64,000 nt of DNA from an uncultured Christensenella sp. (GTDB lineage: Bacteria; Bacillota; Clostridia; Christensenellales; UBA3700), in NCBI GenBank assembly GCA_910583995.1, contig CAJTYW010000003.1, positions 80,492-144,491 on the forward strand, read 5' to 3'. This document shows, one piece after another, positions 11,001 through 57,296 of this stretch (its first letter is position 1; each line of letters starts with the position of its first letter). Below the pieces are notes generated by a model. The model worked only from the letters and a program-made list of their open reading frames with translations. It did not search any database and was not told the origin of the DNA. Made by a program: the position numbers and the translations under genes.

Positions 11001-12431
11001 ATGAGCGAAAAAATCGATGACATAGTAAAAAGGATTCTCAGTATTGAAAGAGAAGAGATAAGACGTAAAAATAAAAATTGTCTACAGTATTATAATACGG
11101 GAGAAAAAGTTCATAAAAAACAGCTTGAGTTTCACAAGTGTTTAAAACGCAATCGCTGGGTATTTGGTGGTAACAGAAGCGGCAAGACAGAGTGTGGTGC
11201 GGTGGAAGCAATATGGTGGGCAAGAGGGATTCACCCATATAGAGAAAATAGACCTAATACAATTGGTTGGGTTGTATCATTGTCATACGAAGTGCAAAGA
11301 GATGTTGCTCAAGCAAAAATATTACATTATTTAAACCCAGATTGGATAGAAGATATTGTAATGATGTCAGGAAGAAAAGGAGCACCTGAGTATGGTATCA
11401 TAGACCATATCGTAATTAAAAATGTGTTTGGTGGTTTATCTAAAATAGGGTTTAAAAGCTGTGACCAAGGAAGAGAAAAATTTCAAGGAACATCGCTTGA
11501 CTATGTTTGGTTTGACGAGGAACCGCCTTATGATATTTACGAAGAGTGCATTATGCGTGTGCTTGATAGGCGCGGGGAAGTATGGGGAACAATGACCCCA
11601 CTTAAAGGACTGACTTGGGTGTATGAAGAGATTTACCTTAATAAATCAAATAATCCTGAAGTATGGCATATTCACATTGAATGGGGGGATAACCCATTTT
11701 TGAATAAAAAGGAAGTGGAATTACTTACAAAAACATTGAGTAGTGAGTCTGTAGATAGCAGAAGATTTGGTAATTTTTCGGCAGATAGCGGGCTTGTTTA
11801 TCCTGAATTTGACCCTAAAACTCATATTGTTGAGCCGTTTTCAGTGCCAACAGAGTGGCAGGATAACATTGCTATTGACCCGGGGCTTAACAACCCGCTT
11901 GCTTGTTTGTTTTTTGCAGTGGACTATGACGGAAATATTTATGTTGTAGGGGAACATTACGAAGCAGGACGGGATATTGACTACCATACTGAAAAGATTT
12001 TTGCTTTGGCAGATAAGCTAAATTGGCATAGAGATAGCAAAGGCAGGCTTACAGCACTTATTGATAGTGCAAGTAAACAACATACCTTGGCATATAGCAA
12101 AAGTGTTGCAGAACTTTTTTATGAAAAAGGCATTGTGGTAAATCCTAATGTTAACAAAGATATGTTTAGTGGTATAGCAAGAGTTAAAGAATACCTTAAA
12201 GCTAGACCGCAAAAAATATTTATTTTTAAAAACTGTGTAAATCTTATAAGAGAATTAAAGTCATATTGGTGGTCTAATGGTGATAACCCAAAAAAGGTGG
12301 ACGACCATACACTAGATGCACTCAGATATTATATTATGACAAAGCCATCACTTAATGAAAGCAAACTAAAAGAGCTAAGTGAGATTGAAAAGGACAAAAC
12401 CAAACTTATGAGAAGATTGAGAAGGTTGTAA
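11001..12431 (+). CDS. terL: Phage terminase large subunit
   Basis: Walker A-like GGNRSGKTECG, Walker B LDYVWFDEE, C-terminal nuclease-type DDHTLDALRYY. Confidence 0.9.
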   Translation: MSEKIDDIVKRILSIEREEIRRKNKNCLQYYNTGEKVHKKQLEFHKCLKRNRWVFGGNRSGKTECGAVEAIWWARGIHPYRENRPNTIGWVVSLSYEVQRDVAQAKILHYLNPDWIEDIVMMSGRKGAPEYGIIDHIVIKNVFGGLSKIGFKSCDQGREKFQGTSLDYVWFDEEPPYDIYEECIMRVLDRRGEVWGTMTPLKGLTWVYEEIYLNKSNNPEVWHIHIEWGDNPFLNKKEVELLTKTLSSESVDSRRFGNFSADSGLVYPEFDPKTHIVEPFSVPTEWQDNIAIDPGLNNPLACLFFAVDYDGNIYVVGEHYEAGRDIDYHTEKIFALADKLNWHRDSKGRLTALIDSASKQHTLAYSKSVAELFYEKGIVVNPNVNKDMFSGIARVKEYLKARPQKIFIFKNCVNLIRELKSYWWSNGDNPKKVDDHTLDALRYYIMTKPSLNESKLKELSEIEKDKTKLMRRLRRL

Positions 12432-12474
12432 ATGGAGCATTTAACTAATTATTATAAGTGTCAAGGGGGAGAAA

Positions 12475-12798
12475 ATGGCTGTTAAAAAAAGCAAACGTGA
12501 AATTATGCTAGATACGCTTTATAAAAAAGGTATAGGTTACAAGACGGAAGAAATTGTGGAAGAGTACGCAAGCGAAGAAAAAGGCGGAGAACTTTTAAAA
12601 AGGAAAGTAACCGTAAAAAATGTGCCACCCGATGTTGTAGCATTAAAAGCGTATCTTGATATTTCCAAACAAGCGGACGAATTTAACAATTTGAGTGACA
12701 GCGAATTGCAGGCTGAAAAACTCAGATTGCTCAAATTATTAAAAAATATGGAGGATAAAAATGAAACTGGCGAATTTGAAAGTAAAGGTAAGGTGTGA
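12475..12798 (+). CDS. Phage hypothetical protein (possible small terminase / DNA-recognition subunit)
   Basis: 107 aa, basic N-terminus and coiled-coil C-terminus, adjacent to terL. The assignment is positional only. Confidence 0.4.
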   Translation: MAVKKSKREIMLDTLYKKGIGYKTEEIVEEYASEEKGGELLKRKVTVKNVPPDVVALKAYLDISKQADEFNNLSDSELQAEKLRLLKLLKNMEDKNETGEFESKGKV

Positions 12799-12988
12799 TT
12801 TCGGACTTTGTAAAAATACTGCAAAGTACGAAATTTATGAGGACGGAGTGCTAGCACGCAGAAAGATTTATTTGTGTGAAGATTGTGCAAAACAAATGTT
12901 TGAGTTGTTATCAAAAGAGTTTGTGCCTAAAAGTCCGATTAATGTAATAAACAGGTCAGTAAAAAGACAAGGAGAAAAGTTGCAATGA
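12761..12988 (+). CDS. Phage small Cys-pair (zinc-ribbon-like) protein
   Basis: RBS GGAGGA. CDFGLC ... CEDC pairs. Overlaps its neighbours on both sides. Confidence 0.5.
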   Translation: MKLANLKVKVRCDFGLCKNTAKYEIYEDGVLARRKIYLCEDCAKQMFELLSKEFVPKSPINVINRSVKRQGEKLQ

Positions 12989-14862
12989 AAAAAATAGATT
13001 TTGCAGAAGATATTGTTAGAGAAGTTTTACAAGACTTTGAAAGAATAAGCGATGAGAGAAAAGCGCTTGAGAGCCAATGGCGACTTAATATGAATTTTGT
13101 GCAAGGCAATCAATATTGTGAAATTTCTCCTGTCGGCGATGTTGAAGACTATGGAAAGCAGTATTTTTGGCAGGAAAGAGAAGTGTTTAATCATATTGCA
13201 CCTATTATTGAAACAAGGCTTGCAAAACTTGGAAGAGTACAAGCAAATGTAAGTGTGCGTCCGTTTAGCCAAGATGAAAAAGACATTAATGTTGCAAAAC
13301 TTTCCACAAGTGTTTTAAAAACCATTTCTGAAGAAAACAAGCTGTCTGAAATAATGATGCAAAGTAATATTTGGAGTGAGATTTGCGGTAGTGTGTTTTT
13401 TAAGGTGATTTGGAATTCGGAAAAAGGTAGAGCAATAGGAGAGACCAAAGATAAAAAGCTTATTAAAGAAGGGGATATTGATATTGTTTTATGTCCGCCT
13501 TACGAAATTTTTCCGGATAAAATAACTAACAATAGCATTGAAGATTGCAAGTATTTGTATCACGCAAAAGTTTATTCCGTAGAAGAAGTAAAAGAGCTTT
13601 GGAATGTTGATGTAGAGCCACAAACTCTTCAGGTATTTGGGTTTGACAATGTGCCTAATGGTGGTGGGCTTGGCTATACTGCAAACAATGCAAGATATGC
13701 GACTTCGAATAAAGAAAATTCCTGTCTTGTAATTGAAAAGTTTGAAAGGCCTTCTAAAAAATACCCTAAAGGTAGACATATTATTGTTGCGGGCGAAAAA
13801 TTAGTTATTGCAGAAGATTTGCCATATCAAACGGAACAAGATGGCGGTTATGGATTGCCTTTTGTCAGAAAAACTTCGCTTGAGAGTGTAACTTGCTTTT
13901 ATGGTTTAAGTATTGTTGAAAGAATTATTCCTGTACAAAGAGCATACAACGGAATTAAAAATAAAAAGCACGAGTTTATGAATAGGATAGCAATGGGTGT
14001 GCTTGCCGTAGAAGATGGTTCTGTTGATACGGATAATTTGGAAGAAGAAGGGTTGTCGCCAGGTAAAGTTTTGATTTATCGTGGTGGTTGCAATCCGCCT
14101 AAAATGCTAAATATGGGCAGTGTGCCAAGCGAATTTGACAGTGAAGAAGCAAGGCTTGAAGATACATTTGTTAATATTACAGGCGTAAGTGAATTTATGA
14201 GAAGTTCCAGCCTTCCTGCAAATGTAACTTCAGGTGTTGCTATCGGATTGTTACAAGAGCAAGATGACACAAGAATATCTATGTCCGCTGAATCTATAAG
14301 AAGTGCGGTAAAATTGATTGGACAATTGATTTTGAGATTATACAAACAATTTGCTGTTTCAAGAAGATTAAAAAGAATTGCAGGGGATAACGGAGAAATA
14401 CAATTGCTTTATTTCCAAGGTTCGGATTTGGCGTCAGATGATTTGGTATTTGATACAGATAATGAGCTTAACGAGACACCTGCTAACAGAAGAAGTATGG
14501 TAATTGAACTTGTTAAAATGGGAATGTTTAGAGACTCTGACGGCAATATGAGTGAGAGAAGTAGGCTTAAACTTTTGGAAATGCTTGGATTTGGTAACTG
14601 GGAGTCTGTACAAGATATCAACGAATGCCATAGAGTAAAAGCACAAAAAGAGAATTTGGATATTTTGCTAAAAGACATATCCGCTATGGAATATGACAAT
14701 CACCAATTGCATATTGATGAGCATATAAAAGCAATTATCAACGAAGAAAATAAAGAGCGTGTACAAAAATTAGACGCACATATTAAAGAACATCAAATGT
14801 TGCTTGCAATGACAAGTATGAATAACAATTTATTAATGGAGGACAATAATGCAGGAGAATAA
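12985..14862 (+). CDS. Phage portal protein
   Basis: 625 aa, positioned between terminase and scaffold/capsid. Size and order are typical of portals. Confidence 0.75.
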   Translation: MKKIDFAEDIVREVLQDFERISDERKALESQWRLNMNFVQGNQYCEISPVGDVEDYGKQYFWQEREVFNHIAPIIETRLAKLGRVQANVSVRPFSQDEKDINVAKLSTSVLKTISEENKLSEIMMQSNIWSEICGSVFFKVIWNSEKGRAIGETKDKKLIKEGDIDIVLCPPYEIFPDKITNNSIEDCKYLYHAKVYSVEEVKELWNVDVEPQTLQVFGFDNVPNGGGLGYTANNARYATSNKENSCLVIEKFERPSKKYPKGRHIIVAGEKLVIAEDLPYQTEQDGGYGLPFVRKTSLESVTCFYGLSIVERIIPVQRAYNGIKNKKHEFMNRIAMGVLAVEDGSVDTDNLEEEGLSPGKVLIYRGGCNPPKMLNMGSVPSEFDSEEARLEDTFVNITGVSEFMRSSSLPANVTSGVAIGLLQEQDDTRISMSAESIRSAVKLIGQLILRLYKQFAVSRRLKRIAGDNGEIQLLYFQGSDLASDDLVFDTDNELNETPANRRSMVIELVKMGMFRDSDGNMSERSRLKLLEMLGFGNWESVQDINECHRVKAQKENLDILLKDISAMEYDNHQLHIDEHIKAIINEENKERVQKLDAHIKEHQMLLAMTSMNNNLLMEDNNAGE

Positions 14863-15448
14863 TACAGTAGAACAAATAGCTGAAGTAACACCGGATACAA
14901 CAATTGAGTCTCAAGAAATAGAACAAACTCAAGCGAATGACAACATATCCGACAATGAAGAAACAGCTGTCTCTTATGGTAAATTCAAGTCAGTAGAGAG
15001 CTTATATGAAGGATATCAACAATTACAAAAGGAATTTACAAAAAAGTGTCAAGTATTAAAGGAACTTGAAAATCGTGTTGGAGATAATAAACATATTCTA
15101 GATAAAATGATTGAAGTAAATCCTGAACTAGGGCAATTTGCAGATGAGCTTAAAAATGTCAGCGATGTAAGCGGTATAAGTTTAAAACTAGCCGAATTGC
15201 TAGCTGGCAAAATCAACGAGCCTTGCAATATTATAAATGACGAGAATTTTTTGAATAATTATGTTTATCAAAACGAAGGTATAATTAACAAAATTGTATC
15301 CGATTATTTGGATAGTCTTGTCAGTATAAAAATTCCGCAAACAATTTCAAAAGGCGGAAATTCGTATGTGTCGCCTACATACAGACCGCGTACTTTAAAT
15401 GAGGCGGGTAAAATGGCGAAAAAATTTATAGAAACACGGAGATTTTAA
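14849..15448 (+). CDS. Phage scaffolding protein (putative)
   Basis: 199 aa, acidic and helical, immediately upstream of the capsid gene. Confidence 0.6.
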   Translation: MQENNTVEQIAEVTPDTTIESQEIEQTQANDNISDNEETAVSYGKFKSVESLYEGYQQLQKEFTKKCQVLKELENRVGDNKHILDKMIEVNPELGQFADELKNVSDVSGISLKLAELLAGKINEPCNIINDENFLNNYVYQNEGIINKIVSDYLDSLVSIKIPQTISKGGNSYVSPTYRPRTLNEAGKMAKKFIETRRF

Positions 15449-15451
15449 AAT

Positions 15452-16615
15452 ATGGTAAATTTGGAAACAGCAGATAAAGCGTTAAAAAGTGTATATTTGG
15501 GTGTAGTTACTGAGCAATTAAATGCACAAGTAAATCCATTGCTTACAAAAATCGAACAAACTTCAAGTGATGTTTGGGGTAAAGATATTATTAAAGTTGT
15601 ATCTTATGGCTTAAATGGTGGTGTTGGTGCAGGTGACGAAATCGGTAGTCTACCTATGGCAGCAGGTAACAACTATGCTCAATATAAATTGGAGCTTAAA
15701 AACCTTTATGGTAGCATTGAAATTTCAGATAAGGCAATCAGAGCTTCTCAAAGCAATGTTGGTGCTTTTGTTAATCTTCTTAACGCTGAAATGGAAGGTT
15801 TGTTAAAAGCTTCTAAGTATAATCTTGGTAGAATGCTTTATGGCGATGGCGACGGCAAGCTTGCAAATGTTGCAAAAGCAGCAACTGCAGCTACAAACAC
15901 TATTAGCTTAACAAGTGTTAAAAAAGTTGCAATTGGTATGGTTATTGACGTTATTGATAACAGCGGTAGCAAGAAAGTATCTCAAGCTAGAATTATCGAT
16001 GTTGATAGAGCAACAAAATCAATCAAAATTGATAAGCAAGTATCAACTCTTGCAACTACAGATTATATCACTATTCAAAACTCAAAAGGTTATGAACTTA
16101 CAGGTTTAGGTGCGATTTTTGGCACAAAAGACATTTATGGTTTAAAGAGAAGCGAAAACACTTGGCTTAATCCATATACAAAAAATGTTGGCGGTACACT
16201 TGATATGGGTACTATTCAAGAAGCAATTGATTTTGTTGACGAAACAGCAGGTTCTGCAGTTAACTTTATCACTTGTGCTTATGATGTTAAAAAGGAATAT
16301 ATCAAAAACTTGTCTGCTAACAGATTGAATGTGGATTATATGACTTTGGACGGCGGCTTTAAAGCTTTGTCTTACAGCGGTATTCCTCTAGTAAGCGATA
16401 AGTTTATCGAAGGTGGTGAAATGTATTTATTAAATACAGATGACTTTAAAATGCACCAACTTTGCGATTGGAGATGGCTTGAAGGGGATAATGGTAATGT
16501 TATCAAACAAAAACTTGGTAGTCCTACATATACTGCTACTTTGGTTAAATATGCTGATATTGTTTGCGACAGACCTTGTGGTCAAGCAAAACTTACCGGT
16601 ATTGTGTGTGAGTAA
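15452..16615 (+). CDS. Phage major capsid protein
   Basis: 387 aa, positioned after portal and scaffold, good RBS. No protease gene is present. Confidence 0.75.
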   Translation: MVNLETADKALKSVYLGVVTEQLNAQVNPLLTKIEQTSSDVWGKDIIKVVSYGLNGGVGAGDEIGSLPMAAGNNYAQYKLELKNLYGSIEISDKAIRASQSNVGAFVNLLNAEMEGLLKASKYNLGRMLYGDGDGKLANVAKAATAATNTISLTSVKKVAIGMVIDVIDNSGSKKVSQARIIDVDRATKSIKIDKQVSTLATTDYITIQNSKGYELTGLGAIFGTKDIYGLKRSENTWLNPYTKNVGGTLDMGTIQEAIDFVDETAGSAVNFITCAYDVKKEYIKNLSANRLNVDYMTLDGGFKALSYSGIPLVSDKFIEGGEMYLLNTDDFKMHQLCDWRWLEGDNGNVIKQKLGSPTYTATLVKYADIVCDRPCGQAKLTGIVCE

Positions 16616-16618
16616 TTT

Positions 16619-16987
16619 ATGAAAGAGCTTAGATTGATTAGTACGAATTGTTATAATATTCCCGAGCGTGTTAGAGAGTTAGATGACGATTACAGATTGT
16701 ATTATAATGTTAGACGAAATGTAATTGAACTTCATAATTTAAGACATATTCCTACCTTTCAATTAGTGCTTCCGTATAGTCAATTGGATACGCGTACTAT
16801 TGAATATATAAGGCGTACCAGAGTAGATAAAATTATAAACGAAATAAAAGAGATTGATGAGTATAATAATAATTTGGAAAATAAACTAATCAATCAAACT
16901 CTTGACGAAATTCACGAAAAAACCAAAAGCGTAATAAACTATATGAATAGGGGTGGAAGTCAAATTCCCTCCTATTCTGAATTGTGA
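16619..16987 (+). CDS. Phage hypothetical protein
   Basis: ORF in the tightly packed structural block. Confidence 0.55.
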   Translation: MKELRLISTNCYNIPERVRELDDDYRLYYNVRRNVIELHNLRHIPTFQLVLPYSQLDTRTIEYIRRTRVDKIINEIKEIDEYNNNLENKLINQTLDEIHEKTKSVINYMNRGGSQIPSYSEL

Positions 16988-16996
16988 GGGGATAAT

Positions 16997-17539
16997 ATGA
17001 AGGTTGAAGATGTTTTGACAGAAGTGTTGATAAGGTTAGGTGACAGGGATAAGTATGACATTATGAATTTGCCACAAGACGATGAAGAAATCAATACAAT
17101 AGTTAAATGTATTAATATGGTTATTTCTGAAATAGCAAGTGACTATTTGCCTGTTGAATTTGAAGAAGAAGTGGAAGTAATTAATGGTGTTATACCTTAT
17201 GATAATTTGTCAAAAAAATTGATTAATTTAAAAAATGTCACTAAAAACTCAACAAAAATCGACACTAAAATGTACCCTAATGAGCTTTTAGTTAAAGCTG
17301 ACGGTATGGTACGAGTGCAATATATGTATATGCCGAATGCAGTAAAACTTGGGGATATTATTTCACTTTCTCCTAAAATTACACTTATGCTTATCGTGTA
17401 TGGTGTGCTAGGAGAGTATTGCTTGCTACAAGGTAGATATGAAGATTCTAGCTTGTATGACAAAAGATATCGTGAAATGCTTAAAATTGCTTGTAGGGTT
17501 ACAAAAGAAATAAAGTTAAAACACGGTTGGTGGAATTAA
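16997..17539 (+). CDS. Phage hypothetical protein (possible head-tail adaptor)
   Basis: RBS GAGGGG. Positioned after the capsid gene. Confidence 0.5.
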   Translation: MKVEDVLTEVLIRLGDRDKYDIMNLPQDDEEINTIVKCINMVISEIASDYLPVEFEEEVEVINGVIPYDNLSKKLINLKNVTKNSTKIDTKMYPNELLVKADGMVRVQYMYMPNAVKLGDIISLSPKITLMLIVYGVLGEYCLLQGRYEDSSLYDKRYREMLKIACRVTKEIKLKHGWWN

Positions 17540-18876
17540 TGAAAAGAATTTATTACAAAAAATTTGTAAGTACCCGAAAGGTTAAGGTTGCGAATTTTAA
17601 AGGTGTAAGTCGTGACTGGTATTCAAAAAGCTTGCCTATTGATTTTGCTTTAAAACAAGAAAATCTAAAGATTGTTAATGGGGCATTGATTCCGTCAATG
17701 TCTCCAAAAAGCATTGAGCTGACTTTTGACGAAAGCATAAACAAGGTAATTCCTTTTTATGATAATGGTACTAAATTATTTGTCGCTTGCAGTGATTCAA
17801 ATTACATAATAGAAGAAAATAACGGCGAAATAATAAAAACGAAAATTGAAAAAGACTGCGAAATAATAGATAGTACCAATTATAAATATGGCGAAGATAA
17901 CTTTGTGATTTTAGCAACAGATGTCGGCGTTAAAAAATTAATAGGTGGCGTGATTGAAAGTAGCGATGTAGATTTGAAATTTAGCAATATTTGCAATCAT
18001 TTTTACAGAATATTTGGTGCAGAAAAAAATTCGACTAAACTACTTTTCAGTGACGATTTTGCACCATTTAACTGGGAGCAAAGTATTGACGAAGGTGGAT
18101 ATATTAATTTATCTTTTGACTATGGCAAGATAACAGACATTATAAGTTTTAATGAATATCTTGTGGTATGTCAGGAAGATTGTTTTACAAAGATTACTGC
18201 TTATTCTGAGCAGGATTCCTTTGTTGTAAAAACTATAACTTCGCCAAGTAACATTAAGGAAGGTAGCACAGTAAATTGCGGAAGTCAGGTAATGTATGCA
18301 ACTGGTAACGGATTTGGTATTTTTGACGGATATGATTGCAGAACAATTTGCGAAGAACTTGCGGGATTTTTAAAAGACTCGGATATTGAATCAGTTGCAA
18401 CAAGCGATTATTGTTATTTTTTGTGTAAGGACAAGTCTAGCGATATTAAAAATAACTATATTATTGCTTATAATTTGCTATACAGAGATTATCATTTTAT
18501 AACGGAAAATGAAGCTGAATTTCTTGTAAAAGTTAAGTTTAATGGCGAAGAAAAAGTGCTTATCGTATGTGACAAAGAGATAAAAGTTTTGTCAGCGGAT
18601 ATTAATAGCAGTAATAAAATATGGCGTTCAGGCAGTATTGATTTTGGTAATTCTGCAGATTTTAAACTTTTAAGAAGAATAGAGTTTGGTGGTAATACCA
18701 TTATTGATTTAAAAATTGCAGTAGACGGCAAAAATTATTTTTTTAATATCACAAATAAAAGAAGTCAACTGCTGAATTTAAAAGGTAAGGAGTTTGAAAT
18801 AGAAATTGCACCAAAAGGTAGAAATATCAATGTTCCGTCACCTGTGATTGAATATTCAGTATTGGAGGAAAATTAA
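17539..18876 (+). CDS. Phage hypothetical structural protein, 445 aa
   Basis: ATG overlaps the previous stop (TAATG). Beta-rich sequence with no motif recognised. Confidence 0.55.
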   Translation: MKRIYYKKFVSTRKVKVANFKGVSRDWYSKSLPIDFALKQENLKIVNGALIPSMSPKSIELTFDESINKVIPFYDNGTKLFVACSDSNYIIEENNGEIIKTKIEKDCEIIDSTNYKYGEDNFVILATDVGVKKLIGGVIESSDVDLKFSNICNHFYRIFGAEKNSTKLLFSDDFAPFNWEQSIDEGGYINLSFDYGKITDIISFNEYLVVCQEDCFTKITAYSEQDSFVVKTITSPSNIKEGSTVNCGSQVMYATGNGFGIFDGYDCRTICEELAGFLKDSDIESVATSDYCYFLCKDKSSDIKNNYIIAYNLLYRDYHFITENEAEFLVKVKFNGEEKVLIVCDKEIKVLSADINSSNKIWRSGSIDFGNSADFKLLRRIEFGGNTIIDLKIAVDGKNYFFNITNKRSQLLNLKGKEFEIEIAPKGRNINVPSPVIEYSVLEEN

Positions 18877-19241
18877 TGAATAAGTTAAGCAATGTGCTTG
18901 AAGAGTTGGAAAATAAATTTGATAGACTAAGACAAAAAGTTAAACAAAGCAAAGTTATTTGTAAAAACAATACAGAATCAAGTCCGCAAATAGTATTTGC
19001 TCATAATGTGTATGGAGCAAATAAAATTTTAACCTACGATATTACTGTAAGTGCTTTAAAGCCTGTTAATATTGTTATTAAACTTGATGATGTAATTATA
19101 AGTACTGTGCAAGGACTTATGGCGTATGGTGAAATATTGCTTAAGTCAAATAAACTTTATAGTCTTGTAGTTGAATGTACAGGTGAGAGTATACTTGCCG
19201 GCAAGCTTAAACTTGAGAGTGCTGACCTTAGGGTAATATAG
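18876..19241 (+). CDS. Phage hypothetical protein
   Basis: TAATG overlap with the upstream gene. Confidence 0.55.
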   Translation: MNKLSNVLEELENKFDRLRQKVKQSKVICKNNTESSPQIVFAHNVYGANKILTYDITVSALKPVNIVIKLDDVIISTVQGLMAYGEILLKSNKLYSLVVECTGESILAGKLKLESADLRVI

Positions 19242-19249
19242 GAGTAAAT

Positions 19250-20218
19250 ATGGGAATTTTTAAGGAAATCAGTGACTGGTGGAATGATTTGTTCAAAGAC
19301 GATGTCACCAAAGAACAAGAGCAAAAAATGATTACCGAACTTGCAGGAATGGAAGCTAAAGAAAGAGAAAGATTGGAAAATATCGTCAAAGAATATGCAG
19401 CTAGCAACAGACCGCAAGATTTGGAATTTGAATATCTTGAAGAATATGTACCTATCGATAATGAAACATTAATGGATAAAAGTGAAAAGCAATATTCTGA
19501 AATTTACAATGCCGAAAAAGATTTGGCAAATGAAAAATATCAAGAGAAACTAAATAAAGTAGAAGAAACCGAAAAAGGTTACATAGATAATGCAGAAAGT
19601 AAAAACAACAATTATAAAGAAAAGTATAAGGACAAGACAGAGAGTTTTAAATCTACTGCAAGCAAAAATGGAATTGCGGATTCTTCTATTATGGGTGCAA
19701 AATCTGAAGACTTGAATAATGAAAGAGACAGATACATTGATGATGTAATGAAAGCTTTGCAAAGCAAATTGAATAGCACTGCTAATAAAAAAGAAGATAT
19801 TCTAAACGAAAAGAATTTGAAAATTCAAAATTTGGATAGCAACTTTACTAAAAATGTTGAAGACTTGTTTAATAAATATCTAAAAGAAGAAGAGAATAAG
19901 GTTAAAGAAGTTGAAAAAGCAAATAAAGATACCGCTAATAAGGAAAAAGCTTACAAAGAGTATCAAGACAGAATAGTAAAAGAAAAGGCCAAAGAAATGG
20001 AAAACCTTCAAAAGGAAATGAAGGAAAAGGAAGAAAGGGGAATATACGAAGACCCTACTCGTGAAGCAGAATATGATAAAAGATTAGAAATAGCAAGAGA
20101 TTTTTATAAAGGGTTTACAAAGAAATCTGCTATAAAAGCTATCCAGGAAAATAGTACTTTGCAAAAGTTTTTAGGATTGAATTATTATAGATTGCTTGAG
20201 GAAATTCAAAATGGATAA
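19250..20218 (+). CDS. Phage Lys/Glu-rich coiled-coil protein
   Basis: RBS TAGGAG. Long K/E-rich heptad-like sequence. Confidence 0.55.
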   Translation: MGIFKEISDWWNDLFKDDVTKEQEQKMITELAGMEAKERERLENIVKEYAASNRPQDLEFEYLEEYVPIDNETLMDKSEKQYSEIYNAEKDLANEKYQEKLNKVEETEKGYIDNAESKNNNYKEKYKDKTESFKSTASKNGIADSSIMGAKSEDLNNERDRYIDDVMKALQSKLNSTANKKEDILNEKNLKIQNLDSNFTKNVEDLFNKYLKEEENKVKEVEKANKDTANKEKAYKEYQDRIVKEKAKEMENLQKEMKEKEERGIYEDPTREAEYDKRLEIARDFYKGFTKKSAIKAIQENSTLQKFLGLNYYRLLEEIQNG

Positions 20219-30290: not shown

Positions 30291-30486
30291 ATATCCCTCT
30301 TATAAAGCATATAATTACATTTTGATTATACACTAAATGTTAAAAAAAGTAAACATTTTTCTTTTAATTTTAAATTTGTCTTGCAAGTTTATGGAAATTA
30401 TGCTACAATAATTAGGATATTAAAATAATTATTTATAACAGCAAATAGTAGTTAATTGCTGCATATATATGACTAGCGGAGGCAAT

Positions 30487-31659
30487 ATGTCTAAAAATAA
30501 ATTTGTAAAACCTAATCAAGATTATATGCCTGAAGGGGATAGCAATCTTTTACAAAAAGATATTGAAGAATTGGGTTTAAGTGAATATACTTTGTCAAAA
30601 CTAAAAAGTGTGGAAATTTGTAAAATTATAGATTTGGCAAGATGTCAAATGAAACACTTATATAAAATCCCTGGAATGAATAAAAAAAACATTTTTGAAG
30701 TTCTTAAAAAATTGCAAAATGCAGGTTTGGATTTGAAAAGGTCGCCTGTTTTAGCGACAGTGGCAGAAGAAGGCTTACATAGCAAAAACGATGCAAAAGA
30801 TAATAGCGAAAGTGTAAAAGTCACAGGTAATCAAGACAAAAAAGCGGATAATAAAAAAAATAAGGACAATAAAAAGGAAAATATTGCTAAAAATAAAGGT
30901 AAAGGACAACCTGTAGTTGCAGAAAACAATACTGCGGAAATAGGGGCAAAGCAAAATAATAAAAACTTTGACAAAAAAAATAAGCAGGATAAAAAGAATA
31001 ATTCTGATATAAAACAAAATCAAAACAATGATAATAAAGTTGCTTTTGGAAATAAGAAACAGGCTATACCACAAAAACAAGTAAAAGTGGGAAATCCTAA
31101 TCCGATAAACAACTCTCCGCAAAAGCCACAAGCTGAGCCTAAGCGAATGAAAGTTAACAGCTATGATATTGATTCATTTATAAATGAAAATACATCTGGC
31201 AAGAAAACTTTGAAACAAGAGAGAGAAGAAAAAATTGCAAAAGCAATAAAAGATTTGCCACCTGTTAAAAATGCTGACGGACTATATAAATTTTACAGAC
31301 ACGGCAAATGGGGATACAAGACAGAGTCAGGTAAAGTGGTAATAGAACCAACTTATACAGAAGCTTTTAATTTTAGAGAAGGGCTTGCTTGTGTGGAACT
31401 TGACGAGAGATGTGGTTTTATTAACAAACAAGGTGAAATTGTAATTCCTATTCAGTATGATACAGCTTGCAGTTTTAGTGAAGGTGTTGCATCTGTAACA
31501 AAAGGCGACAAATGCGGTTATATAGATAAGGAAGGTAATATTGTTTTTGATTTTGTATATGAAGCTGCAACTTCTTTTGAAAATGATATTGCACTTGTTA
31601 AAAAAGACGGCAAATGGGGTTATATGGATAGAAAAACAGGAGAAATTAGACTTAGATAA
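30487..31659 (+). CDS. Protein with RNA-polymerase-alpha-CTD-like helix-hairpin-helix domain, N/K-rich linker and C-terminal WG (KWG) repeats
   Basis: ATG after GGAGG. IEELGLSEYTLSKLKSVEICKIIDL...IPGMNKKNIFEVLKKLQNAGLDL resembles the RpoA CTD. Repeats GKWGYKTESGKVVIEP, CGFINKQGEIVIP, CGYIDKEGNIVF, GKWGYMDRKTGE. Confidence 0.7.
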   Translation: MSKNKFVKPNQDYMPEGDSNLLQKDIEELGLSEYTLSKLKSVEICKIIDLARCQMKHLYKIPGMNKKNIFEVLKKLQNAGLDLKRSPVLATVAEEGLHSKNDAKDNSESVKVTGNQDKKADNKKNKDNKKENIAKNKGKGQPVVAENNTAEIGAKQNNKNFDKKNKQDKKNNSDIKQNQNNDNKVAFGNKKQAIPQKQVKVGNPNPINNSPQKPQAEPKRMKVNSYDIDSFINENTSGKKTLKQEREEKIAKAIKDLPPVKNADGLYKFYRHGKWGYKTESGKVVIEPTYTEAFNFREGLACVELDERCGFINKQGEIVIPIQYDTACSFSEGVASVTKGDKCGYIDKEGNIVFDFVYEAATSFENDIALVKKDGKWGYMDRKTGEIRLR

Positions 31660-37985: not shown

Positions 37986-39119
37986 ATGCTTTACACACAA
38001 TTTGAAGATAATTTTGCTAAATGTAAAAATGTAAGAATTGAAAATAATATTGCCGAAGAAGTATTATCCGACATAAAAAAATTGACTAAAGCCGGAGTGA
38101 TTAATGTCATTTATACTGAAAATAAAATTGACCTTGCAAGTGAAATTGAAGTATTATTAAATCGTGCAGGATACATTGCAAAAATAACTTTATTAAGTAA
38201 TGATATTTTTGTGGACGAACTGCAAGATAATTGCGAAGGAATAGTATTATTGGGTAGTAGTTTATCAAAATTGATTTGCGGAAATAAATGCTTGATTGTA
38301 GCAGACGAATTGCATTTGTTTGAAATTTTACATAAAGATTATTATTCCGTCATTGTGGACGAAAAAACTATAAAAAACAGCAGTGCAGGCGAACTTGCAG
38401 GTGGTTACGGAATTTTAATGGCGAAGCTAATTGCTTGCTTTGATTATAAGCTTTCTTGTATCGCTTATAGCAAAAATGATAATTTGAGCATAATATCTGA
38501 GATTGAAGAAGTAATAATAAGTATGTTTTTAAAGACATATACTTTTAATTTTGATGAAAGTTTTTCAAGAGATTTAGCTATGACTATTATAAGTGTAGGA
38601 ATGCTTGAGAGTATGCTTAATAAAATAGATATACTTAGCGGCTATGACATTTGCAGTTTGCTTGTCAAAAAAGTGAGCAAAAGCAATAATGGAAAAAATG
38701 AATTTGCTATGCTAGTTGGTTGGTATATTTTAAATGTTGTAAAAAGCCTTATCAAAAATGAGTCAAAAGATTTGTTTTTGCCTAGCGATATTATTGCTGA
38801 CTTGGAGTTTGTAAGCGGTAAGGCGGAAATTAGTAAATTGCAATTGCTTAATTTGATTGATAATATTGTGGCAAGTGAGTATACAAGATTATTGTTTATA
38901 AGCTTTGAGTATAAAAACGAGATAGAAAAAAGTATTAATAAAATATATACGCCTTGTCAAAACGCAATAAAAAATTTCAGACGCATATATTACGATGCGG
39001 GACTAGAGATAGCAGCAAGTATAACTATGAAAGACTTGTCCGAATGTGTGCTAAGAAGCGTAATATTTAATCCGCAATATAGCTTTTTAAAAATGTACAG
39101 GATACTGGGTATAGCCTAA
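37986..39119 (+). CDS. Hypothetical protein
   Basis: 377-aa ORF with RBS GGGGGTG. No family recognised. Confidence 0.55.
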   Translation: MLYTQFEDNFAKCKNVRIENNIAEEVLSDIKKLTKAGVINVIYTENKIDLASEIEVLLNRAGYIAKITLLSNDIFVDELQDNCEGIVLLGSSLSKLICGNKCLIVADELHLFEILHKDYYSVIVDEKTIKNSSAGELAGGYGILMAKLIACFDYKLSCIAYSKNDNLSIISEIEEVIISMFLKTYTFNFDESFSRDLAMTIISVGMLESMLNKIDILSGYDICSLLVKKVSKSNNGKNEFAMLVGWYILNVVKSLIKNESKDLFLPSDIIADLEFVSGKAEISKLQLLNLIDNIVASEYTRLLFISFEYKNEIEKSINKIYTPCQNAIKNFRRIYYDAGLEIAASITMKDLSECVLRSVIFNPQYSFLKMYRILGIA

Positions 39120-39153: not shown

Positions 39154-39933
39154 TTATTTGTTTTTAACTTCAAATATTTCGTATTTGCCTGTATACTTTT
39201 GAGACCTGCCCCTTATTACGCTTATTATTGCAAGCAGTATATTTACAGAGCCTAAAATTATATAATAAGTTTTAAAAGGTATTAAAAAACTGAAAGCAAA
39301 CAAAACAATTGCTACAAACAAAAATTTTTTGATATTGGATTTGTCAAATATAATATCAAATATATTTGTGCTGTAATTTAATTTTCCAATTTTAATACTT
39401 AGTTTGTCAGATAGTAATTTTTGTGATTTTAGCAATTTAAATACGATTTTCAGCGGGATAAACTTTAAATTGTCAGCAAAATTAAATAAAGTTATTGCAG
39501 CGTTTTTAGGTAGTTCCTTTGCAATAAGATAGCATTTTTCCACCCCGCATTGTTTTGCGATTTTGCTATATTTCAAAATTTCGTCAGGTGACAAATTTCC
39601 GAATTTTGCCGAGCATACAATCATAATATTAAGCGGTGAAATCAAATAATCATTTGCTTTTTTAAATTCCATATTTTCAAACACTATCATTAATTTATCG
39701 TATATGTAGTTTGCACCTTGCACACTGACATAAAGCTCAAAATTTTTATAGTTTATTCTTTTGCTGTTTATTTTTTGAATAAATGAAATAACAATCAATC
39801 CTAACAAAGCAAATAGCGCTGCTAGGATAGTTTTTATTGCCACATTTTGTGATATGAAATGACATATCAAATAAAATGGAATGAATAAACAAATAAAAGT
39901 CAGTAATCTGTCAATGTGTTTTTTTAATTTCAT
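39154..39933 (-). CDS. Hypothetical membrane protein (2 N-terminal and 2 C-terminal TM segments around a soluble domain)
   Basis: ORF plus hydrophobicity pattern only. Confidence 0.55.
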   Translation of the reverse strand: MKLKKHIDRLLTFICLFIPFYLICHFISQNVAIKTILAALFALLGLIVISFIQKINSKRINYKNFELYVSVQGANYIYDKLMIVFENMEFKKANDYLISPLNIMIVCSAKFGNLSPDEILKYSKIAKQCGVEKCYLIAKELPKNAAITLFNFADNLKFIPLKIVFKLLKSQKLLSDKLSIKIGKLNYSTNIFDIIFDKSNIKKFLFVAIVLFAFSFLIPFKTYYIILGSVNILLAIISVIRGRSQKYTGKYEIFEVKNK

Positions 39934-41603: not shown

Positions 41604-42029
41604 TTGCATAATTTGGTAAACTTTGCTAATAATAATTGTATGAACAATTATATTATGTATGAAAATGTAGCAAATGTTTCTAATATTTCAGGCTATGAAA
41701 AAGATTATAACTATTTAATAGTTAATGACGCAAAACAATATGATTTTGTGCAAGTTGTGCTTAGTGTAGGCAAAATCAGACAAGCAGTTTGTTATGAACT
41801 AAAAACTGGAGAAGTTTTGGTTGGGGCACTTACAGAGCCATTATTTTCACTTTCGGAAAGACTTATTCTAATGCAGGATATAGAGAAAAAAGTGAATGAA
41901 ATTACAGGTAAAAAGGTGTATGTAACCTTTGATACAGACTTGTTTGTAGCCATAAGTAAATGTAAAGACGATGAAAAGGCCGGTAAGCTAAAAGAGTTAA
42001 TTTTTATGCGAAATAGTGCTAGAATGTAA
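41604..42029 (+). CDS. Hypothetical protein (start uncertain)
   Basis: ORF with a TTG tracked start. No RBS or family recognised. Confidence 0.4.
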   Translation: MHNLVNFANNNCMNNYIMYENVANVSNISGYEKDYNYLIVNDAKQYDFVQVVLSVGKIRQAVCYELKTGEVLVGALTEPLFSLSERLILMQDIEKKVNEITGKKVYVTFDTDLFVAISKCKDDEKAGKLKELIFMRNSARM

Positions 42030-52555: not shown

Positions 52556-53263
52556 CTAATTGATTTCTCTTCTTAATTGTTTAAGTTTTATATATGTGTA
52601 AATCTTTTTTATCTGTTCGGGAGTAAGCTTTGTTGTTGTAATCTTTTGACCCGGCGTGTAAGTAGTAATATCGCTGTTTTTTATTTCGGATAATCTACTT
52701 GTTATATCGGTTATATTATGTACGCTATTTATGTTGTCGCCTGTCTCTTCAGTTGCAAGTAAGCTTTCGCTTGTTTCCAGTAAATCGCTATCTGCCATTA
52801 TATCCGTTTGTGTAACTGTATTGTTTTGACTGATATTGCTATAATATGCTTGATTTTGCTTAACTGAAAAATCAATATTATGTATTGTTGAGATTGTTTC
52901 CGCTTGTCTTAAACTTGTTGGCATAATTTTTGAGTAATTGACTTGCATATCATTTAGTTTGTTAAACAAAAACTCACTTTCAAATTCCCCACACAAGATA
53001 TAAACTTGTAAATAATTGTTTTTGGCACATAATTCTATTGTATCTAATGCTTGCGGAATATCCAGTGCAACTTTTTTTCTGCTACCATTGTAATTATGTA
53101 TTATTTCATTGTTTACAAAAGGCAACTTATTGTGTTTTTGCTCAATATAGTTATAAATGTGTATTTCAAGATTATCACTTGGAATATTTTCAATCAAGTG
53201 GGAATAACTCTGAGTATTCAGTCTTGTTGTGTTTAAATCAATAGTCAAAAGATAATTGTGCAA
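52556..53263 (-). CDS. Hypothetical protein, co-oriented and abutting ogg
   Basis: 235-aa ORF starting 3 nt after the ogg stop. No family recognised. Confidence 0.55.
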   Translation of the reverse strand: MHNYLLTIDLNTTRLNTQSYSHLIENIPSDNLEIHIYNYIEQKHNKLPFVNNEIIHNYNGSRKKVALDIPQALDTIELCAKNNYLQVYILCGEFESEFLFNKLNDMQVNYSKIMPTSLRQAETISTIHNIDFSVKQNQAYYSNISQNNTVTQTDIMADSDLLETSESLLATEETGDNINSVHNITDITSRLSEIKNSDITTYTPGQKITTTKLTPEQIKKIYTYIKLKQLRREIN

Positions 53264-56113: not shown

Positions 56114-56147
56114 TTATCCCACAGCAAAAATGCTGTGGGATATTTAT
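56114..56147 (+). terminator. Probable terminator after the MATE gene
   Basis: Stem ATCCCACAGC / GCTGTGGGAT with a weak T-tract. Confidence 0.55.
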
Positions 56148-56369
56148 ATGAAATAAAAGTAGTTTTTGTAACATTTTAATTATGATTAAAATATTATTAA
56201 TATAGTAATCATTACTACTTTTATGTTTAAAAATTGATAACGAATATTAGTTTTATTTTTTATAAATTAATAATCATTACTATTTTTAACAAAGCACTTT
56301 AGACATAAGGATAATTTATATATTTATATAAATATAAGCTTAAAAAGTGCGTATCGTTTAGTATTTTAC

Positions 56370-56738
56370 TCAGTTGTTGCAACCACAACCATTATTTCTA
56401 TTGTTCCAGATTAAAAATACTGGCATACCATTTAAGTTGTTTCTGTTTTGCATTCCGCTGCAAGAGCCGTAACCACAGCCACAACTATTTCTATTGTTGC
56501 CACAGCTACAAGAATTGCAACCGCAAGAGTTACAACCGTAGCCAATTCTATTATTGCCGCAACCACAAGAGTTACAGCCGCAACCATTTCTATTGTTTCC
56601 ACAACCGCAAGGATTGCAGCCACAGCCATTTCTGTTGTTCCAGCCGAAATCGTTAAATAAATTAGCTTGATTATTAAACCAATTGTTACAACCTGAGCAG
56701 TTATTTCTGCAACAGTTATTGCAATTAAAATTACACAT
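56370..56738 (-). CDS. Cys/Asn/Gly-rich tandem-repeat small protein (function unknown)
   Basis: RBS GAGGT 6 nt before the ATG. 122 aa with 24 Cys by my count. Repeated NNRNGCGCN(P/S)CGCG units. No signal peptide. Confidence 0.6.
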   Translation of the reverse strand: MCNFNCNNCCRNNCSGCNNWFNNQANLFNDFGWNNRNGCGCNPCGCGNNRNGCGCNSCGCGNNRIGYGCNSCGCNSCSCGNNRNSCGCGYGSCSGMQNRNNLNGMPVFLIWNNRNNGCGCNN

Positions 56739-56761
56739 ATATATACCTCAAAAACATAGCT

Positions 56762-56790
56762 ATTTTAAAGATAAAATTAAAAAATTTCAA
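56762..56790 (-). promoter_or_regulatory. Sigma-A-type promoter TTGAAA-17-TAAAAT for the Cys-rich gene
   Basis: On the minus strand: TTGAAA (56790-56785), 17-nt spacer, TAAAAT (56767-56762). Confidence 0.55.
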
Positions 56791-57296
56791 AGCTGAATTT
56801 GATTTATCCTATTTGATAAAAATTGTTTCATAACACCGCAATAGGATTATCATTTTGGATTTAAAAGTTTATAGATTTTTGAATTAAAAACTCATAAAAT
56901 CAGTATGAAAAATTTCTTTTTTATCTTCTACTAAAAAGATATGAATTTTTAAAAAAATATGTGAAAAATTTTGAGTAAAAGACTAGACATTTTTTTATAA
57001 ATGTGTTATTATAAATATACAAGAAAAATATATAATAAAATTAAGAAAAATTACACAAAATAATACTGAAAAAATAATCTTGTTTTTGAGCAAAAATCAA
57101 ACAGAAAATTGTTTTTTCAGGGCGTTAAAATTTTATTAAATCCACTGATATTATTTAAACATTCGCAGATTTACAAAATCAATAACAAATAATTTTTCGG
57201 TTTTAACAAAAAATATATTTTCTAAAATAACTTTTAACAGCTGACATATAAATTTCCGTATATGAATTTGGCTTTAATAATCTTGGAGGTATTAAG

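Follow-up and report, generated by a model that had tools for sequence, protein, structure and literature searches.

A cysteine-rich tandem-repeat protein of uncultured gut Clostridia: a conserved, lineage-restricted gene with a possible metallothionein-like role

Results

Gene organization and protein composition

Within the window, by which we mean the whole 64-kb stretch of DNA that was analysed, a coding sequence located at positions 56370 to 56738 on the minus strand starts with ATG and encodes a Cys/Asn/Gly-rich repeat protein of 122 amino acids. The gene is flanked by the genes for PFL and its activase on one side and by a convergent gene for a MATE transporter on the other. A previous sequence-only reading had placed it between AT-rich spacers, and the GC contents of these are 19.5% upstream (558 nt) and 17.9% downstream (301 nt). 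The same reading held that the G/C-rich codons stand out sharply, which is true relative to the non-coding flanks, whereas the contrast with coding DNA is moderate: the GC content of the ORF is 38.7% versus a coding average of 33.1%, and the GC3 values are 39% and 25%, respectively. No paralogs were found in the window.

The protein contains 24 Cys, 37 Asn and 21 Gly, as had been estimated (24 Cys, a similar or larger number of Asn and many Gly), and these three residues together make up two-thirds of the sequence; there are 7 Arg, a single Asp and no Lys, His or Glu. From the N- to the C-terminus it consists of an MCNFNCNNCC cap, a Cys-free NNWFNNQANLFNDFGW segment, repeats of the form NNRNGCGCN(S/P)CGCG and a conserved tail, CGCGYGSC...NNLNGMPVFLIWNNRNNGCGCNN, with Cys located at residues 2, 6, 9 and 10 as well as within the last five residues. 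One example of an Arg-C or tryptic peptide from the protein is NGCGCNPCGCGNNR. At the DNA level, the repeats form a tandem array at positions 56518 to 56639 with a period of 42 nt (14 amino acids), 2.9 copies and 81% matches, and this array is the substrate of a repeat-number polymorphism. Neither a signal peptide nor a transmembrane segment was detected in the protein, for which the Kyte-Doolittle mean over 15 residues peaks at 0.34, and MPVFLIW is its sole hydrophobic patch; the missing signal peptide and the single patch had been noted previously.

The members of the family have Cys shares of 16.7-21.6%, versus a mean of 1.4% in the other proteins of the window. The window protein has eight C-x-C, six C-x-x-C and one CC motif. 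The C-x-C count compares with 4.5 expected and was reached by 94 of 2000 composition-matched shuffles, while the 14 such motifs in L012 compare with 6.0 expected and were reached by none of 2000. C-x-C motifs exceeded the composition-matched shuffles in most members, and for L007, L009, L010, L011 and L012 at most 5 of 2000 shuffles reached the observed count. The residue before nearly every Cys is Gly, Ser or Asn. Across the family, the proteins contain 4-7 Arg and 9-11 aromatic residues (8-10%), some of them at conserved W, F and Y positions. The number of Cys ranges from 15 to 29 and neither the count nor its parity is conserved, which speaks against a fixed fold held by disulfides within the molecule.

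Conservation and coding capacity

The same PFL/ORF/MATE synteny, with orthologs of 89-134 amino acids, recurs in at least 10 further assemblies of gut MAGs that are Christensenellales-like; the carrier MAGs include GCA_948845845.1, GCA_949438725.1, CANSGN01, CAJTNW01, CAJUOU01, CAJTNA01 and CAJUEA01. The protein has conserved termini and a conserved tail, its core is of low complexity, and all changes in repeat number and other indels are in frame. A same-species relative with a flank identity of 97.8% carries a clean 99-nt in-frame deletion within the tandem repeat, and L011 and L017 differ in repeat number (127 versus 118 amino acids), so that copy number varies among strains, as the earlier reading had proposed to examine. 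The dN/dS ratio was estimated to about 0.02-0.1 on 32 ungapped conserved codons.

An open frame in a repeat could also be a GC-richer DNA segment free of stop codons by chance, or the locus could encode a functional RNA or an antisense-frame peptide. Other frames do run for long distances without a stop codon, in L006 and L011 one antisense frame is wholly open, and the non-coding module downstream of the gene suggests RNA-level features at the locus. However, only the Cys-rich frame is open from end to end in all nine loci, and in this frame pS is 0.56-0.84, with synonymous sites saturated, as compared to a pN of 0.04-0.16. The ATG codon, the ribosome-binding site and both termini are conserved, and indels are multiples of three throughout. 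The frame, disruption of which in relatives had been put forward as the sign of a non-coding repeat, is intact in every relative. We consider the non-protein explanation very improbable, since the conservation, dN/dS and frame data essentially refute it. Given the conserved synteny, the exclusively in-frame changes and the purifying selection, the Cys-rich ORF is a real protein-coding gene, confined to a narrow group of uncultured Clostridia from the gut.

Profile searches run exhaustively against 1.84 and 5.8 billion proteins recovered two members only, P0001 and P0002. No match to the protein was obtained in Pfam and NCBIfam (E <= 10), in PHROGs or in a PDB sequence profile search (E <= 10); the 122-residue sequence was not on record in an exact look-up, and a cluster look-up returned no names. 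A search with the C-terminal module alone gave zero matches but also missed the known members, so the query was uninformative. Literature searches found no described equivalent of the protein. The gene is thus an orphan, as first described, with just two database relatives. An AlphaFold model based on an alignment of three sequences had a pLDDT of 31.7 and no predicted fold. The contrast between two entries among 5.8 billion proteins and DNA in at least 10 assemblies indicates that the gene is absent from most MAG annotations, which is a practical warning. A metagenome scan yielded no members in another context, only in the same lineage and synteny. One of the contigs, L016, appears to be chimeric.

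Gene neighborhood

The absence of an adjacent modifying enzyme, noted already from the sequence, extends to all of the 9 or more genomes inspected, in none of which a RiPP-type enzyme adjoins the gene. This bears on whether the protein is a TOMM-type (thiazole/oxazole) or otherwise Cys-modified RiPP precursor matured by enzymes encoded elsewhere in the genome. Its many Gly-Cys and Ser-Cys dipeptides would then be cyclodehydrated, with the conserved segments that lack Cys acting as recognition sequences. The Cys/Gly-rich repetitive sequence with strain-variable in-frame indels and the Gly, Ser or Asn before nearly every Cys are as expected of such a precursor, and there is a precedent in heterocycloanthracin, whose Cys/Gly-repeat precursor is encoded 1.27 Mb from the maturation operon and is often missed by gene callers (PMC2674419), much as the Cys-rich gene is missed by most MAG annotations. 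Against this, even a threshold of E <= 10 gave no match of the protein to TIGR03601 or to any other model of RiPP precursors, it lacks a Cys-free N-terminal leader, having Cys at residue 2 as well as at its end, and its length (100-134 amino acids) is great for a RiPP. Genes for YcaO, cyclodehydratase, dehydrogenase, LanM and SPASM proteins are absent within 10 kb on either side in 9 or more genomes and from the 64-kb window, where the sole radical SAM genes are those for the PFL activase and YgiQ. The adjacent transporter is the convergent MATE protein rather than an ABC or peptidase exporter. Taken together, this makes a precursor role improbable.

Upstream region

The translation initiation region (56745 to 56759, minus strand) contains a CTATG motif at 56759-56755 and, as predicted in the earlier reading, a good ribosome-binding site, GAGGT at 56749-56745, 6 nt from the ATG; CTAT..GAGGTA is invariant across all orthologs. 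That reading also assigned the gene a promoter of its own, TTGAAA-17-TAAAAT at 56790-56762 on the minus strand. The site is present, with a 10/12 match, and is a plausible promoter in the window species, but sites of this pattern occur at chance frequency in this AT-rich DNA (9 found versus 9.7 expected). It is moreover located in a lineage-variable spacer that is missing from L007 and L009, and is found only in the window and in L001, with a similar TTGAAA-16-CATAAT in L006, which rules it out as a conserved promoter.

The only upstream promoter-like element common to all nine loci is a block at 56936 to 56965 that faces the ORF on the minus strand, TTCACA (56965-56960) followed after 18 nt by TATCTT (56941-56936). 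It is located about 200 nt upstream of the ORF, and about 60-90 nt from the ATG in L007 and L009, and its strict pattern occurs once in the window. We regard it as a candidate conserved promoter for the Cys-rich gene. Back-to-back with this block is the conserved promoter of the divergent PFL gene (56984 to 57012, plus strand; TAGACA-17-TGtTATTAT), both being contained in a conserved intergenic core of about 140 nt. We recognized no metal-sensor operator in the conserved upstream region and, by eye, no Rex/CRP-type palindrome in the conserved block.

The block has a second reading, CAC-N17-CATATCTT, which resembles mother-cell sigma-K promoters. Across all loci it takes the form cAC-N17-CATAT(C/T)(C/T)T, which fits the AC/16-18/CATATAAT-type sigma-K promoters of Clostridioides difficile, for which a sigma-K/E consensus has been published (PMC3789822). 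Accordingly, the protein could belong to the structural matrix of the spore coat, the exosporium or a different envelope layer and be crosslinked there by disulfides. Made by the mother cell under a sigma-K-type promoter, it would be deposited by means of the conserved C-terminal hydrophobic motif and then locked by intermolecular disulfides into a cement similar to keratin-associated proteins, leaving the number of repeats free to vary. The unconserved Cys parity is compatible with cross-links between molecules, spore-surface proteins typically show repeat polymorphism within a species, and a conserved tail combined with a low-complexity core is in line with such a function. The host also has an intact gene for the SpoIVB peptidase (E = 3e-66), next to a gene for a protein with a Spo0A_C domain only (57.6 bits versus a cutoff of 200; profile positions 156-258), an arrangement conserved in many samples. 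However, the Spo0A-like gene has no receiver domain, so that the lineage is a putative spore former. The block is equally sigma-A-like (TTCACA-18-TATCCT), its match to the sigma-K -10 element is partial, and since it lies between -45 and -95 relative to the PFL promoter, it may serve PFL. Finally, no CotY/ExsY/CdeC/CdeM-type homology was found in Pfam or NCBIfam, and there are no other coat genes nearby. A spore or envelope role hence appears rather unlikely, if more credible than a precursor.

Downstream module

A conserved non-coding module at 56153 to 56336 follows the gene. It consists of an invariant, AT-rich anchor (56336-56310), three 7-1-7 palindromes with a spacing of about 33 bp (box 1, 56282-56268; box 2, 56249-56235; box 3, 56217-56203) and an inverted repeat, ATAAAAGTAG (56224-56215) and CTACTTTTAT (56162-56153). 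The sequence TAGTAATNATTACTA has two matches in 64 kb at no more than one mismatch, both within the module. Box 3, TAGTAATgATTACTA, is a perfect 7-1-7 palindrome with a TAAT-N-ATTA core that matches the Gram-positive Zur consensus at 12 of 14 positions and the Fur and PerR consensus sequences at 10 of 14. The consensus sequences used for the comparison were verified against PMC545781, and all three strings also occur verbatim in indexed papers. No Fur-like box was found at the promoter of the nearby rubrerythrin gene or elsewhere in the window; given a rubrerythrin gene nearby without such a box, we rejected a PerR identity for the boxes. A weak antisense promoter-like site precedes box 3 at a position that recurs among loci, although such sites are common in AT-rich DNA.

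The module contains no conserved small ORF or type I toxin, and Rfam gave no credible match at the locus. Variation within it is compatible with G-U pairing, which favors an RNA stem in the direction of the ORF over a DNA operator. The module may be the 3'UTR of the ORF, a Fur-family-type operator array or both, and its tie to the ORF is uncertain. It is followed by a predicted bidirectional intrinsic terminator, a hairpin with a 12-bp stem at 56115 to 56142 that the ORF transcript shares with the MATE gene converging on it. In other loci the stem of the terminator shows compensatory changes (CCCACAGC/GCTGTGGG, CCCCGCAG/CTGCGGGG and CCCACGGC/GCCGTGGG).

Discussion

The sequence-only reading had proposed three roles for the protein, which we rank in the order metal or redox buffer, spore or envelope component, and precursor for Cys modification. 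The first, a metallothionein-like thiol-rich buffer, is our preferred but tentative interpretation, to which we give less than even odds. The protein would be cytoplasmic, intrinsically disordered and thiol-rich, and would act like a metallothionein (MT). The modules, (NNR[NS]G)-C-G-C-N-x-C-G-C-G, present Cys mostly as C-x-C and C-x-x-C, and these residues could enclose soft metal ions (Cu(I), Zn(II) and Cd(II)) within clusters of metal thiolates, or could serve as scavengers of oxidants and electrophiles. The one Arg per module might offset the negative charge of the clusters, acidic residues being nearly absent, and the conserved Cys-free aromatic segments (NNWxNN...F.. and NLNGMPVFLIW) could serve as linkers or docking elements. 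Recombination between the 42-nt repeats would add or remove units and thereby tune the capacity between strains. Both metal or redox binding and any regulation of the protein are inferred here.

The high Cys content, the excess of C-x-C in most members, the variable number and parity of Cys, the lack of Lys, His and Glu alongside 4-7 Arg, and the lack of a signal peptide or transmembrane segment are all consistent with the metallothionein-like interpretation. So are the stand-alone gene, with no maturation genes in 9 or more genomes, and the low pLDDT of the AlphaFold model, as would be expected of an apo-metallothionein. The adjoining module, with three Fur-family-like boxes and a core close to the Zur consensus, may point in the same direction. 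In common with classical MTs, the protein is small, falls within their Cys content of about 15-30% and has its Cys in C-x-C, C-x-x-C and C-C motifs. On the other hand, the aromatic content of 8-10% and the strongly conserved hydrophobic PVFLIW are atypical of classical MTs, in which aromatics are scarce, and no homology to any MT family was detected in Pfam, NCBIfam or the PDB (E <= 10). The gene has no neighbor encoding a metal transporter or sensor, and no metal-sensor operator is recognizable upstream. The Fur-like boxes are located 3' of the gene and absent from the rubrerythrin promoter, and are candidates for either a DNA operator or an RNA stem.

A bolder version would make the protein the founder of a new class of bacterial metallothioneins, and the first metallothionein from strictly anaerobic gut Firmicutes, with a modular, strain-tunable capacity and an expression coupled to metal status through the adjacent module. 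Bound to the three 7-1-7 palindromes, a Fur-family repressor would silence a cis-antisense transcript, or act in some other way on the 3'UTR, such that the buffer is made only when metal is plentiful. We consider this combination a long shot.

As a metal or redox buffer, the protein would represent an unrecognized type of metallothionein in anaerobic gut Firmicutes, of relevance to how uncultured Christensenellales-like commensals face dietary Cu and Zn and oxidative bursts. The repeat polymorphism within a species provides a range of dosages of natural origin. A role in the spore matrix would instead be a sign of sporulation, and one as an orphan-located thiazole peptide precursor a sign of a hidden RiPP pathway, in a lineage without cultured members.

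Comparison with known systems

The C-G-C and C-x-C-x-x-C-x-C strings presumably resemble those of Cu-thioneins in fungi and of type 1/2 MTs in plants, the plant proteins also having Cys-free aromatic linkers. Eukaryotic Cu/Zn MTs of these kinds (Neurospora-type Cu-thionein, plant type 1/2) are likewise small and rich in Gly, Ser and Asn, with about 20% Cys in C-x-C and C-x-x-C motifs, basic but few acidic residues and a disordered state without metal. The protein described here differs from them in having no homology (Pfam), about 30% Asn, the conserved hydrophobic PVFLIW, 14-residue tandem modules of strain-variable copy number and a bacterial host, an anaerobic Firmicute. No metallothionein of a Firmicute is known to us, and none turned up in a brief search of the literature. 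The bacterial MTs SmtA/BmtA and the mycobacterial MymT are also small cytoplasmic Cys-rich proteins encoded by stand-alone genes, the likeness as a metal buffer being predicted. BmtA has a zinc-finger-like fold with Cys and His ligands and MymT has Cys/His motifs, whereas the present protein lacks His, has a repetitive sequence of about twice their length and shows no detectable similarity to them.

CotY/ExsY and the C. difficile proteins CdeC and CdeM are Cys-rich, disulfide-crosslinked Firmicute proteins with sigma-K promoters. The likeness consists of the Cys-richness and the possible sigma-K-like reading of the conserved upstream block; the differences are the lack of homology, a far more extreme composition and a host that is a putative spore former, with Spo0A present as a C-terminal domain only. 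The heterocycloanthracin/sonorensin precursors (TIGR03601; PMC2674419) share with the Cys-rich protein the Cys/Gly-rich low-complexity repeats with strain-variable in-frame indels, the distance from maturation genes and the ease with which gene callers miss them. Their N-terminal leader is conserved and free of Cys and their period is C-x-x, whereas the protein encoded in the window has C-x-C in 14-residue modules and its best-conserved Cys-free motif near the C-terminus.

A constrained, lineage-restricted gene for a cysteine-rich protein

The Cys-rich ORF begins with ATG and spans 122 codons on the minus strand (56370..56738). Its product, MCNFNCNNCCRNNCSGCNNWFNNQANLFNDFGWNNRNGCGCNPCGCGNNRNGCGCNSCGCGNNRIGYGCNSCGCNSCSCGNNRNSCGCGYGSCSGMQNRNNLNGMPVFLIWNNRNNGCGCNN, contains 37 Asn, 24 Cys, 21 Gly, 8 Ser and 7 Arg residues and no Lys, His or Glu; the mean values for the other proteins of the window are 1.4% Cys, 6.8% Asn and 6.4% Gly. 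The ribosome binding site GAGGT is located 6 nt before the start codon, the surrounding spacers are 558 and 301 nt in size with a GC content of 18-20%, and Tandem Repeats Finder identified 2.9 copies of a 42-nt (14-aa) unit at 56518-56639. No signal peptide or membrane segment was found, no 15-residue stretch of the product being hydrophobic enough. The sequence-only reading had described the ORF, its Cys/Asn/Gly-rich composition, the ribosome binding site, the AT-rich spacers, a promoter-like site and the lack of a signal peptide, all of which were present, whereas its claim that G/C-rich codons stand out sharply was too strong: the GC content of the ORF exceeds the coding average by a moderate margin only (38.7% versus 33.1%), although GC3 is 39% versus 25%. 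The mean pLDDT of the AlphaFold2 model was 31.7, and the product is therefore predicted to be disordered, at any rate when neither ligand-bound nor cross-linked.

Searches against Pfam, NCBIfam (including its RiPP precursor and metallothionein models) and PHROGs gave no matches to the product even at E <= 10, and a sequence profile search of the PDB returned nothing. A family profile recovered one protein, P0001 (89 aa), from 1.84 billion representatives with hmmsearch, and a 9-member profile recovered P0001 and P0002 (108 aa, 46% identity) alone from 5.8 billion proteins, the same two relatives that an initial search of that number of proteins had yielded; both belong to clusters without a name. 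The contigs encoding these two relatives share the same gene order, with the PFL and PFL activase genes divergent from the ORF and the MATE gene convergent with it. Six further loci were identified in a scan of one genome per GTDB species, all in MAGs labelled uncultured Christensenella, Christensenellaceae or Clostridia with a GC content of about 29-33%, and a metagenome scan yielded additional copies. The product is a new, lineage-restricted family, and the gene has evidently never been called in most MAG annotations. One copy, identical to that of locus L017, is located at 1019-1375 on a contig with 44% GC (L016, OFFM01001840.1), where the surrounding genes are unrelated and the PFL/MATE synteny is missing; a chimeric metagenome assembly is the most likely explanation, more so than a transfer event.

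The orthologues are 89-134 aa in size, start with MCNF and end with ...G(C/Y)GYGSC...N(L/I)NG(M/I/A)PV(F/Y)L(I/V)W...C.CN. Most of the differences between them are in how many NNR(N/S)GCGC-type units they contain, always with the frame kept, and the Cys-rich frame is the only one open end-to-end in all 9 loci. For 32 ungapped conserved codons, which were picked for alignability so that dN is biased downward, pS was 0.56-0.84 (saturated), pN 0.04-0.16 and dN/dS about 0.02-0.1. Despite this bias, the synonymous saturation shows protein-level constraint in the Cys-rich frame. Repeat numbers vary among strains, as had been proposed for checking: a same-species relative with flanks 97.8% identical over 12 kb lacks 99 nt of the repeat array through a clean, in-frame deletion, and the L011 and L017 products likewise differ in repeat number (127 versus 118 aa). 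A non-coding GC-rich repeat that is open by chance, the scenario named at the outset as refuting the gene, is extremely improbable, being effectively excluded by the conserved synteny and frame, the dN/dS values and the in-frame indels. The Cys-rich ORF is a real gene.

Transcription signals and the sporulation context

The PFL-ORF intergenic region (379-558 nt) was aligned in full for 9 loci and contained three conserved parts: a PFL-proximal leader, the ORF initiation region (CTATG...GAGGTA) and a core of about 140 nt. The core includes a PFL-facing promoter, TAGACA-17-TGtTATTAT (56984-57012, plus strand), and, back-to-back with it on the minus strand, an ORF-facing block consisting of TTCACA (56965-56960), 18 nt and TAT(C/T)(C/T)T (56941-56936), the one promoter-like element that all 9 loci share. 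The own promoter initially suggested for the ORF, TTGAAA-17-TAAAAT (56790-56762, minus strand), does exist as a site, but it falls in about 130 nt of spacer that vary between lineages and are missing entirely from L007 and L009; the site recurs in no locus but the same-species L001 and, in a loose form, L006. Such hexamer pairs are also no more frequent than expected by chance in the AT-rich DNA of the window (9 found, 9.7 expected).

On the PFL side (56984-57296, plus strand, and orthologous loci), the conserved promoter is located about 285 nt before the ATG, and the leader conserved near the RBS spans about 80 nt (complementary strand: CATA.ACGGAATATTTATATG...TGTTAAAAGTTA). Rfam had no matching family. 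The distant promoter and the leader suggest that PFL has a long regulated 5'UTR.

Shifted by one base, the ORF-facing block reads CAC-N17-CATATnnT, a strict pattern that occurs once in the window. It fits the sigma-K promoters mapped in C. difficile (AC, 16-18 bp, CATATAAT-type; PMC3789822). By its motifs, the block could be either a sigma-A or a sigma-K promoter; alternatively, it might belong to the PFL promoter as an upstream element. If made from the sigma-K-like block, the product might be a disulfide-crosslinked matrix protein of the spore coat or exosporium; this second-ranked possibility, to which we give a modest chance, would require a host able to sporulate. Such competence is plausible, judging from the genes encoded: region 1090-2665 of the window holds an intact SpoIVB peptidase gene (E = 3e-66) followed, after a 181-nt gap, by a gene for a 108-aa protein that has the DNA-binding C-terminal domain of Spo0A alone and lacks a receiver domain. 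This arrangement is conserved (L018-L020), and the assembly collection contains the exact 108-aa protein in 167 blocks. The gene may encode a receiver-less, phosphorylation-independent Spo0A or may be a relic of sporulation loss.

A conserved module downstream of the ORF

A terminator hairpin with a 12-bp stem (56142-56115) serves both convergent genes, the ORF and MATE, and its stem shows compensatory changes between loci. The segment between the ORF stop and the terminator is conserved far better than the repeats of the ORF itself. It contains a module (56153-56336), also found in L001, L006-L012 and L017, that is located 30 to 248 nt from the ORF stop and, because of this variation, is considered a separate unit. 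The module consists of an invariant AT-rich 27-mer (56336-56310) and three 7-1-7 palindromes evenly spaced at about 33 bp: box 1, TAGTAATGATTATTA (56282-56268); box 2 (56249-56235), which is degenerate in the window and reads AATAATCATTATCA in other loci; and box 3, TAGTAATGATTACTA (56217-56203), a perfect palindrome enclosed by the inverted repeat ATAAAAGTAG / CTACTTTTAT. Allowing one mismatch at most, the palindrome matched only within the module in the 64-kb window, and the nearby rubrerythrin gene has no such box at its promoter. There was no conserved small ORF in the module and no corresponding Rfam family.

The box core agrees with the Gram-positive Zur consensus TCGTAATNATTACGA at 12 of 14 positions and with the Fur and PerR consensus at 10 of 14, using the sequences as given in PMC545781 and PMC4324032; each of the three strings also appears verbatim in indexed papers. 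The boxes may be DNA operators: an antisense promoter-like site recurs closely upstream of box 3 (GTAACA-18-TATTAT, 56168-56197, plus strand) and would fire toward the 3' end of the ORF, although such sites are frequent in 82% A+T DNA. Alternatively, the module may form an RNA structure in the 3'UTR of the ORF or in an sRNA, in which box 1 would pair with box 2 and the inverted repeat would enclose box 3. Natural variation at three positions gives G-U pairs in the ORF direction and C-A in the opposite direction; double compensatory changes are absent outside the terminator. We flag the module as the best lead to the regulation of the ORF.

Other features of the window

A phage-like head and packaging block at 11001-20218 encodes a terminase large subunit, a portal and a major head protein (PHROGs E = 7e-32, 1e-39 and 1e-50), followed by unassigned ORFs, and may be either a GTA-like element or what is left of a prophage. 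In a 396-aa protein (30469-31659), an N-terminal domain resembling the RNA polymerase alpha-CTD (PF03118, 2.7e-06) is joined to WG beta-repeats (PF14903, 8e-38), an unusual pairing. Five conserved ORFs of 141-377 aa (52556-53263, 37986-39119, 39154-39933, 41604-42029 and 2782-3396) had no match in Pfam or NCBIfam; one of them, the 235-aa ORF downstream of the OGG-like glycosylase gene, is syntenic in all related loci.

Putative function and relationship to known families

Our leading, still tentative, suggestion from the sequence features is that the product is a cytoplasmic, metallothionein-like thiol-rich buffer, in which each C-G-C-N-x-C-G-C module would offer four thiolates. Consistent with this, Cys constitutes 17-22% of the residues, C-x-C exceeds the compositional expectation in most members, each module has one Arg and acidic residues are nearly absent. 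The number and parity of Cys vary (15-29), so that a fixed disulfide fold is less likely, and the predicted disorder, the lack of an export signal, the stand-alone gene and the adjoining Fur-family-like module point in the same direction. Against it are the lack of homology to known metallothioneins, an aromatic content of 8-10% with a strongly conserved PVFLIW motif, and the absence of adjacent metal genes. Functions other than those named here have about the same modest chance as a spore matrix role.

A TOMM-type (thiazole/oxazole-modified) RiPP precursor encoded away from its maturation genes is, by analogy with heterocycloanthracin, an unlikely candidate. In that precedent (PMC2674419), the precursor gene is likewise distant from its maturation genes, has Cys/Gly repeats with strain-variable indels and is often overlooked by gene callers. 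However, the product has no Cys-free N-terminal leader, no model match and a different Cys period, and there is no maturase in any of the sequences examined; YcaO, LanM and SPASM genes are absent from the window, where the radical SAM genes are those for PFL activase and YgiQ. The ORF resembles heterocycloanthracin in its repeats and indels but does not have the leader-and-core architecture of that family. In its working, as far as composition indicates, the product most resembles a metallothionein, but it has neither the homology nor the paucity of aromatic residues expected of a member, and is therefore placed in no existing metallothionein family.
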